64,000 nucleotides of DNA from Escherichia coli (GTDB taxonomy: Bacteria; Pseudomonadota; Gammaproteobacteria; Enterobacterales; Enterobacteriaceae), in NCBI RefSeq assembly GCF_003334335.1, contig NZ_QOWQ01000018.1, one strand, 5' to 3'. Shown one piece after another: positions 60,818 to 64,000 of the stretch. The notes beneath the pieces were generated by a model that saw only the letters and a list, made by a program, of their open reading frames with translations, was not told the DNA's origin and made no database searches. The translations under genes were made by a program, and so were the position numbers. Positions within the stretch are counted from its first letter, which is position 1, and each line of letters opens with the position of its first letter.

Positions 60818-60905
60818 ACGACAATTTGGTGAGGTGTCCGAGTGGCTGAAGGAGCACGCCTGGAAAGTGTGTATACGGCAACGTATCGGGGGTTCGAATC
60901 CCCCC
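60818..60905 (+). tRNA. serX: tRNA-Ser (anticodon GGA)
   Basis: 88 nt GGTGAGGTGTCCGAGTGGCTGAAGGAGCACGCCTGGAAAGTG...GGTTCGAATCCCCCCCTCACCGCCA: D-arm GAGTGG, anticodon loop CCTGGAAAG, long variable arm, T-arm GGTTCGAATCC, encoded CCA. Confidence 0.95.
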
Positions 60906-60911
60906 CTCACC

Positions 60912-60945
60912 GCCAGATTACAAGCGCATGTTATTGTTTAACATG
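60912..60945 (+). terminator. Rho-independent terminator of serX
   Basis: Hairpin aagcgcatgtt-attgttt-aacatgcgctt followed by a T-run, 7 nt after the tRNA 3' end. Confidence 0.8.
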
Positions 60946-62205: not shown

Positions 62206-62694
62206 TTACCAGTCGAAAGTGGGGAACCCCGGCAGACATTCTGCGCCGGCGTCCAGATGAATGAGACTGACGCCATAACGCCGGGTGAGAGTGACGACCA
62301 GACGACGGAACGTTCTTGACAGGCCCAGGCGTTTAAGCCGCAGAACCGGGTACGACCATGCATCGGTACGTAACAGATAGCCGCTGCCTGTAAAATGAAT
62401 CCATTCTGTTTCGCCGTCGTCATTAGTCTGGTGTGACAGCGAGTACAGCCAGGCGTTGTCCGTTTCCGTGATATGTGCGGTACTGCAACGTATGCCGGTA
62501 AGGGTTGTTAACGGTGGTGGTGTACTGGTTGACTGCTGGTCGGATTTATCGACCACGCGGAGTGAATAACCGTTTTCAGAGACCTTGTTAATCAGTTCAG
62601 CGAGATTAACACCATCGACGTCAACGACAATGCGCCCCATGTTCAGCGCCTGCATGTTAATGCTGTCGGCTTCCGGCGTCAGGGAAAGGTTCAT
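62206..62694 (-). CDS. YeeW-like protein (DUF5983-type), full length
   Basis: 162-aa [57 protein letters not shown]...; its ATG overlaps the CbtA stop as ATGA; position matches yeeW downstream of cbtA. Confidence 0.6.
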
Positions 62695-63074
62695 TGTTTC
62701 GCCTCCTCCGGATGCTTGCCCAGGGTAATGTTATTTACCATTCTGTAATTGTCCCGGGTCATCAGGCCGGTCGCCCTGCGAGCCCGGAGAATATCAATGC
62801 TGTTGATTAACTGAGACGACGGGGCTCCTGCGCTGAATCCCGGCTGGTCAGTTCGTACCAGCACGTATTTTTCAACGAGAAAGTTCACCGCGTCACACAG
62901 TGAAATCCCTGCCTCAATATGCTGCTCAATCACACGTTCATCAGCGAACGGTGTGTCATTCAACGTAAGGCCATAGTGCTGGTCCAGCAGTCGGGTGAGC
63001 AGTGTCTGCCAGATTTCAACCGGAGACGGGCAGCGCGATGCCGCCCGTACGTGTGTGTCGGGTAATGTTTTCAT
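62691..63074 (-). CDS. cbtA: CbtA-family toxin of a type IV toxin-antitoxin system (YeeV/YkfI/YpjF-like)
   Basis: Start at ATG 63074 gives 127 aa [70 protein letters not shown]..., near-identical to remembered YeeV-family toxins. Confidence 0.9.
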
Positions 63075-63154: not shown

Positions 63155-63535
63155 CTATTCCGGAGGGTTACTTTCCGTTTCGGTCGCAGGATAAACAGCC
63201 AGATAAACGTAACCACAGGAGCCGAGGGTGTCGGCATCGCAGGTCAGCCCTTTCGCATACAGCGTGACGGTATGCTGATGCCGGGGATTCAGTTCACCGC
63301 TGGTGAGCATGAGTTCCAGTTGTTTCATCAGCAGTGGAAAAGCCTGGTCCAGATGGTATGCATCCGCATTGCTGAACCGGCCTCTGATACCGGCGCGGTC
63401 TGCAAGGTAATGCAACCGGTTACCCTCCTGCACCAGACGTGCCCCGAAACAGGGCGTCACGGTGCAGGGCAGCCCCCACCAGGGGCGGTCTTTGTTGTCG
63501 TCGGGAAGCGTTGTCCCGGGGAGTGTGTCTGACAC
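63155..63535 (-). CDS. cbeA: CbeA-family antitoxin of a type IV toxin-antitoxin system (YeeU/YafW/YfjZ-like)
   Basis: Probable GTG start at 63535 gives [54 protein letters not shown]... matching the remembered YeeU N-terminus ([13 protein letters not shown]...). Confidence 0.88.
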
Positions 63536-63545
63536 GATAAAATCC

Positions 63546-63923
63546 TCACAGAAAATCGGTGAATGATAGTTTAACGATGACGGGGCAGCCGGCGCGCAGA
63601 CCGGCTTCGGTGAAGGTATATTCGTTGATGAGAAGGGCCTCATCCACAGCGGCGTCTGAGGTCAGCCAGTCGTACTCGTTTTCCAGTTGACGGTACAACC
63701 AGAAGGCCAGGTCGCGCAGGGCTTCGCTGACTGCGGCTTCCGCATCGGTTGTCATAGCCTGACCAGTCGGACTGTTCCGGGTGACGGTGATATCCATGCA
63801 GTACGGATGGCAGTAACGTCCCCGGTGGTGGATTTCAGCCTGCAGTTGCCAGAAGTTACGCTTCTGCACCGCCTGCAGGGCATCCGCGATACGATGAAGC
63901 TCACGGTCCTGCGGGGCATACAC
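63546..63923 (-). CDS. Hypothetical protein upstream of cbeA (yeeT/ykfH position); start uncertain
   Basis: 125-codon ORF opening with GTG at 63923 (an in-frame stop lies 9 nt upstream); internal ATGs would give 83- or 68-aa products; stop is 8 nt before the cbeA start. Sequence not recognised. Confidence 0.4.
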   Translation of the reverse strand: MYAPQDRELHRIADALQAVQKRNFWQLQAEIHHRGRYCHPYCMDITVTRNSPTGQAMTTDAEAAVSEALRDLAFWLYRQLENEYDWLTSDAAVDEALLINEYTFTEAGLRAGCPVIVKLSFTDFL

Positions 63924-64000
63924 CCATAAGCGCTAACTTAAGGGTTGAACCATCTGAAGAATGCGACGCCTCGGTGCCTCGTTAAGACGATGCCTCGCGT

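Follow-up and report, generated by a model that had tools for sequence, protein, structure and literature searches.

The window, by which we mean the whole 64,000-nt stretch of Escherichia coli DNA that was analysed, contains a CP4-type island with the tRNA-Ser(GGA) gene serX as its integration site and boundary. On the minus strand of this island, a cbeA–cbtA antitoxin–toxin pair is preceded by an ORF of 125 codons and, at the very end of the window, by the terminus of an insertion sequence. The features listed below were assigned with the help of three related loci, namely L001 (ETEC O6:H16, IS-bearing), L002 (strain 503025, intact) and L003 (strain 10034940-2, IS-bearing), and of L013 (NZ_OZ547571.1), which carries the canonical 214-codon allele of the gene discussed here.

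60828–60915, plus strand: tRNA-Ser(GGA) gene serX, adjoining ghrA (ARAGORN; annotation of L002 and L003).
62691–63074, minus strand: cbtA (toxin), intact (ORF; annotated in L001 and L002 as WP_000854686.1, 'TA system toxin CbtA family protein', at the corresponding place).
63155–63535, minus strand: cbeA (YeeU-family type IV antitoxin), intact, with a GTG start (PF06154, E = 1.9e-54; WP_001285602.1 in L001 and L002).
63546–63925, minus strand: 3' remnant of a 227-aa DUF8835-type gene (gene nt 305–684, residues 103–227 and the stop codon; 100% identical to L002:6147–6526; phrog_5162 match; PGAP).
63585–63587, minus strand: usual stop codon of the family, TGA, changed here to TGC (alignment with L013).
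63914–63925, no strand: one copy of the 12-bp target-site duplication GGGCATACACCC, which flanks both IS ends in L001 and occurs once in the intact gene of L002.
63926–64000, minus strand: terminal 75 bp of IS421 (IS4-like), including a 22-bp terminal inverted repeat at 63926–63947 (same sequence as the IS end of L001 and L003).

The 125-codon ORF occupies positions 63546–63923, directly 5' of cbeA, which in turn is followed by cbtA. It lies on the minus strand; a preliminary description of this DNA had given no strand. That description had recognised from the window sequence that GTG is the only start at full length, which is confirmed by the ORF list of the window. It had also placed the ORF correctly before cbeA, but with the stop codon 8 nt away; with the stop codon at 63546–63548 and the cbeA GTG at 63533–63535, the gap is 10 nt. 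The Shine-Dalgarno sequence of cbeA (AGGA) overlaps the ORF stop codon. ATG codons inside the ORF would yield products of 83 and 69 aa, the first as previously stated and the second one residue longer than the 68 aa given before.

The ORF was found to be identical to residues 103–227 of WP_000086768.1, a 'hypothetical protein' of 227 aa encoded by a 684-nt CDS (hereafter the parent gene), and is thus a fragment of a longer gene rather than the different small gene that had been considered. In strain 503025 (L002), which shares the ghrA–tRNA-Ser(GGA) context, the parent CDS is intact between yeeT and cbeA, the minus-strand order being DUF932, antirestriction (ArdB/KlcA-type), JAB/RadC (yeeS), DUF987 (yeeT), WP_000086768.1, cbeA, cbtA, DUF5983, DUF957 and DUF4942. 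The profile phrog_5162, a PHROG family with its function given as unknown and the only hit in the profile libraries, matched the window fragment at profile positions 97–196 of 201 (E = 4e-16) and the full-length parent with E = 8e-36, and by sequence similarity both the remnant and its parent can be assigned to the DUF8835/phrog_5162 family. The parent allele at this locus differs from the canonical one at its 3' end: loss of the usual stop codon (TGA to TGC at 63585–63587) adds 13 residues (214 to 227 aa) and leads to a new stop 10 nt before cbeA. The 214-aa homologues end in ...RAG, and the C-terminus of the family reads ...TEAGxRxG. The start codon of cbeA also varies, being GTG in the window allele and ATG in L013. 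The copy in L013 (3040–3684) has an internal stop, and its RefSeq product name, 'DUF8835 domain-containing pootine', contains a typing error.

To delimit the insertion, positions 63400–64000 were compared by megablast with 5426 complete E. coli genomes. Hundreds of these genomes were 100% identical up to window position 63925 only, and six over the full length of the query; after 63925 all six continue into the IS421 terminus. With a junction-spanning query, exactly six of the 5426 genomes were found to carry the insertion. A base-level comparison of the window with the IS-bearing L001 and the intact L002 placed the IS421 boundary at 63925|63926. A boundary further to the left was considered and rejected, as the partial matches extending past the junction are other IS421 insertions (for example in sufD) with GGG-N6-CCC targets. 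In L001 the element is 1337 bp long, has perfect 22-bp inverted repeats and is flanked on both sides by the 12-bp duplication GGGCATACACCC. The IS terminus that abuts the interrupted gene is present in the window, positions 63926–64000 being the IS end of L001; the window itself shows one copy of the duplication and 75 bp of the IS, while the second copy and the transposase are visible in L001 and L003. Beyond the junction, both of these loci contain an IS421-family transposase CDS followed by the 5' fragment of the parent gene, DUF987, RadC, an antirestriction gene and DUF932. L003 has the same serX context as the window and is 99.8% identical to it over 4 kb. As the window stops 75 bp into the IS, what follows (the remainder of IS421, the 5' fragment, yeeT) is known only from these related genomes, and an IS-mediated deletion may have occurred in the source genome beyond position 64000.

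According to these data, IS421 transposed into the sequence GGGCATACACCC, corresponding to codons 102–106 of the parent gene, duplicated these 12 bp and thereby interrupted the gene. Read along the gene, the junction is ...AGT TAG CGC TTA TGG GTG TAT GCC: the IS end contributes an in-frame TAG four codons before the GTG, and this GTG, the supposed start of the ORF, is an internal codon (Val103) within the duplicated target. With the frame closed by the TAG of the IS terminus, the GTG of Val103 is the next possible start, and the boundaries of the 125-codon ORF are therefore a by-product of the insertion. We consider it very probable that the ORF is the 3' remnant of an uncharacterised mobile-element gene that was split by IS421.

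The identical IS421 junction was also seen in a second chromosomal setting. In L001 the island lies at infA–tRNA-Ser, next to serW, and in the window and L003 next to serX (ghrA), which suggests that these two tRNA-Ser(GGA) loci have exchanged islands or that an inversion has taken place between them. The duplication GGGCATACACCC at window positions 63914–63925 can be set beside GGGATATCTCCC at positions 2514–2525 of L021 (sufD), where the flanks show further likeness, and IS421 seems to prefer targets of the form GGG-N6-CCC.

In line with the preliminary description, in which the ORF was not recognisable as a YeeT-type protein, hmmscan against Pfam-A (E ≤ 10) returned no match for either the 125-aa ORF or its 227-aa parent, NCBIfam returned none for the ORF, and BLASTP of the ORF against K-12 YeeT produced no alignment at E ≤ 100. 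A clear DUF987/YeeT profile hit, which had been named as the mark of the ordinary gene, was looked for in Pfam-A and not found. The idea that the ORF is nevertheless a divergent YeeT/YkfH protein (DUF987), and hence the ordinary gene before the antitoxin, is favoured only by its position directly upstream of cbeA. Against it stand this lack of Pfam and BLASTP similarity and the presence of a genuine, separate DUF987 gene of 73 aa upstream of the parent gene both in the intact L002 and in the IS-bearing L003, and we regard it as having next to no likelihood. In L003, the closest matching genome, the expected YeeT is located one gene further upstream, past the IS and outside the window. The 'missing YeeT' is thus simply one gene away, and the GTG start is an artefact.

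The preliminary description had also offered a disrupted radC-like (JAB) gene as the source of the ORF, which would be its 3' part. It was right in that the ORF is indeed the 3' fragment of a disrupted gene, but the parent, WP_000086768.1, belongs to another family. The parent had no Pfam match to RadC/JAB (PF04002), BLASTP against K-12 YeeS, a RadC homologue, gave only noise at E > 1, and an intact RadC/JAB gene is found two genes upstream in both L002 and L003, leaving a radC origin extremely improbable. The CbeA_antitoxin profile (PF06154) matched neither the ORF nor the parent.

PGAP marks both halves of the split gene as pseudogenes in L001 and L003, the 3' half as 'incomplete; missing N-terminus', and the window copy, which starts at residue 103, does not contain a complete DUF8835 domain of ~214 aa. 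Of 25 positions that are invariant or almost so among 118 diverse aligned homologues, 14 were located before residue 103, those of a GFxSQGDGAxFEG loop among them. The structure predicted by AF2 for the full-length parent (mean pLDDT 94.6, pTM 0.87) likewise has two helices (residues 17–30 and 38–51) and six strands (53–92) in the segment that is absent from the remnant. Lacking both N-terminal helices, the sheet of six strands and this loop, the remnant cannot fold like its parent, and it is probably neither functional nor expressed. We also considered that the remnant might still be translated from the GTG or an internal ATG, either retaining a partial function of the C-terminal helical half or acting mainly through translational coupling, by bringing ribosomes to cbeA. 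The frame has no stop over 125 codons; the codon that ends it is separated from the start of cbeA by 10 nt and shares bases with the AGGA. Read-through transcripts from the transposase gene, which has the same direction, are plausible. However, neither the GTG nor the internal ATGs are preceded by a Shine-Dalgarno-like sequence, the entire beta-sheet is missing together with over half of the conserved positions, and the occurrence of this state in only six of 5426 genomes gives no sign of selection, making continued translation very unlikely. The favoured interpretation remains that of an inert gene remnant.

Promoter and terminator scans revealed no minus-strand promoter-like site for cbeA–cbtA. 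As the transposase gene of IS421 points in the same direction, a cbeA–cbtA transcript could arise by read-through, and the pair is now probably transcribed in this way. The remnant is covered by public records: it is a RefSeq pseudogene, and an identical 124-aa fragment is present in UniProt (A0A8S7IK49). For the window itself the finding therefore carries little weight, as it concerns an IS-disrupted pseudogene that is already flagged in public annotation.

The intact gene is of wider interest. With a coverage of at least 80%, the parent gene was present in 1942 of the 5426 complete E. coli genomes (36%). The preliminary description had started from YeeT as the usual immediate neighbour of the antitoxin; this holds for K-12 but not in general, since these 1942 genomes carry the extra gene. 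The 73-nt yeeT–cbeA spacer of K-12 CP4-44 (L014, 1540–1612) keeps ~25 nt of the 5' end and ~14 nt of the 3' end of the parent gene. As both ends are retained, the textbook arrangement looks like a deletion derivative, and on the aligned sequences the K-12 order appears to have arisen from the parent-bearing order by a deletion of ~645 bp. The yeeT–cbeA arrangement that serves as the reference for these islands would then be a derived one.

The parent family is large. One search returned 2723 homologous clusters at 90% identity, and 3530 clusters were obtained at 50% identity (E ≤ 0.001). In databases its members are named "antitoxin of toxin-antitoxin stability system" or DUF8835, the latter name having been seen only as a PGAP product in NZ_OZ547571.1. 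The proteins are acidic, with a median pI of 4.7 and a median net charge of -16 (-7 for the E. coli allele). Pfam-A searches with the fragment, the full-length protein and the 118 aligned homologues found nothing, nor did NCBIfam, and PADLOC gave a single non-significant match to JetA (E = 0.014–0.049). Sequence and profile searches of the PDB yielded nothing credible, and a comparison of the AF2 model with solved structures no convincing match. One 374-aa family member, which has a C-terminal extension, contains no Pfam domain, and its genomic context was uninformative.

In Salmonella the gene order is as in E. coli. In Klebsiella michiganensis (L005 and L006, 7610–8996) the parent gene is located between cbeA and cbtA, indicating that it has moved relative to the toxin–antitoxin pair while still attached to it. 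In an ICE-like region of Tistrella, which lacks CbtA/CbeA, a homologue is found among genes for DUF2958, a large ParB_N protein, DUF736 and a relaxase, and on plasmids of Rhodobacterales, Sinorhizobium and Sphingobium homologues belong to cassettes with ssb, DUF932, RadC, DUF6878, ParB-like, zincin (ArdC-like) and methyltransferase/helicase genes. On four alphaproteobacterial plasmids (L011, L012, L018 and L019) the upstream gene overlaps the start of the homologue by exactly 8 nt in all four cases. A conserved upstream partner on these plasmids was considered and dismissed, as the upstream genes are not all homologous (DUF6878 in one, unrelated hypothetical genes in others) and none is YeeT-like. 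A homologue is also carried by 54 phage records, among them a Vequintavirinae coliphage, phages of Acinetobacter and Pseudomonas, and giant Caulobacter phages, which have it inside their terminal repeats. In the two phage neighbourhoods examined it lies within long one-directional runs of small hypothetical genes, and such arrays of lytic phages resemble those of early genes.

This distribution across plasmids, ICEs and phages suggests that the family is part of the accessory or "leading-region" genes of mobile elements and not of the CbtA/CbeA pair. Judging from context, charge and distribution, we propose with low confidence that the intact family may not be an antitoxin but may serve mobile elements early on, in establishment or counter-defence, a role with which the acidic composition is compatible. 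The database names imply another role, that of a third component of the CbtA/CbeA system (an accessory antitoxin or a modulator). Consistent with this, the parent gene directly adjoins cbeA in both E. coli and Salmonella, has its place between cbeA and cbtA in K. michiganensis and is fused in frame to cbeA in some E. coli alleles. These fusions of 342–343 aa (P0004, P0017 and ~13 further E. coli clusters; junction ...RAGLPEDFIVSD) occur in several strains, complete genomes included. Against this role, all of them share one junction and thus represent a single deletion event. An AF2 model of a natural fusion (pTM 0.60), used as a proxy for an interaction, showed no confident packing between the two domains, but was uninformative, as the CbeA half had a pLDDT < 70 owing to a shallow alignment there. 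CbtA/CbeA was absent from the alphaproteobacterial ICE, the alphaproteobacterial and Acinetobacter plasmid loci, the phage loci and the short metagenomic contigs examined, and the K-12 CP4-44 module works without the parent gene. CbeA alone is reported to counteract CbtA (Masuda et al. 2012). A literature search, under the names and the accession tried, retrieved no paper on the parent protein and none backing the antitoxin name. Taken together, a third-component function appears unlikely.

A more specific form of the establishment or counter-defence role can be proposed. DUF8835 could conceivably be an undescribed protein of this kind, with a fold that has no counterpart yet among solved structures, common to conjugative plasmids, ICEs, CP4-type islands and lytic phages, which in enterobacteria became coupled to CbtA/CbeA; we put this forward as a possibility that is rather doubtful as it stands. 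If it is true, the window copy would be an inactivated example of a widespread and mis-named mobile-element function. The family is large and conserved, has no match in the Pfam library searched, is found in about one third of complete E. coli genomes and on many plasmids and phages, and has a confident structural model without a solved relative. It is a modest lead, of relevance for CbtA/CbeA modules as well as for leading-region anti-defence genes.

Four known systems can be compared with the locus. The closest is WP_000086768.1 itself, which is 100% identical to the window ORF over residues 103–227, occupies the same place before cbeA in the same island and represents the same stop-loss allele, whereas residues 1–102 are missing from the window copy owing to IS421. 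The sufD::IS421 allele of strain CS18F shares with the window the IS terminus, the 12-bp length of the duplication and a similar GGG-N6-CCC target, but the target gene is a different one and the window junction is rare (6 of 5426 genomes). YeeT/YkfH/YpjJ (DUF987, PF06174) resembles the ORF as a small-island gene located 5' of cbeA-type antitoxins in CP4-type islands; however, yeeT is a separate gene, the parent of the ORF is three times longer, and the two show no sequence or profile similarity. Finally, like ArdA and ArdB/KlcA, the intact family is acidic, is encoded on plasmids, ICEs and phages and occurs in cassettes with ArdB-type antirestriction, RadC, DUF932, ssb, ParB-like and ArdC-like genes. 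No homology of the parent to PF07275, PF03230 or the anti-defence entries of PADLOC and PHROG was found, and in the absence of sequence, profile or fold similarity to ArdA and ArdB/KlcA the likeness to these proteins is one of genomic context and composition.
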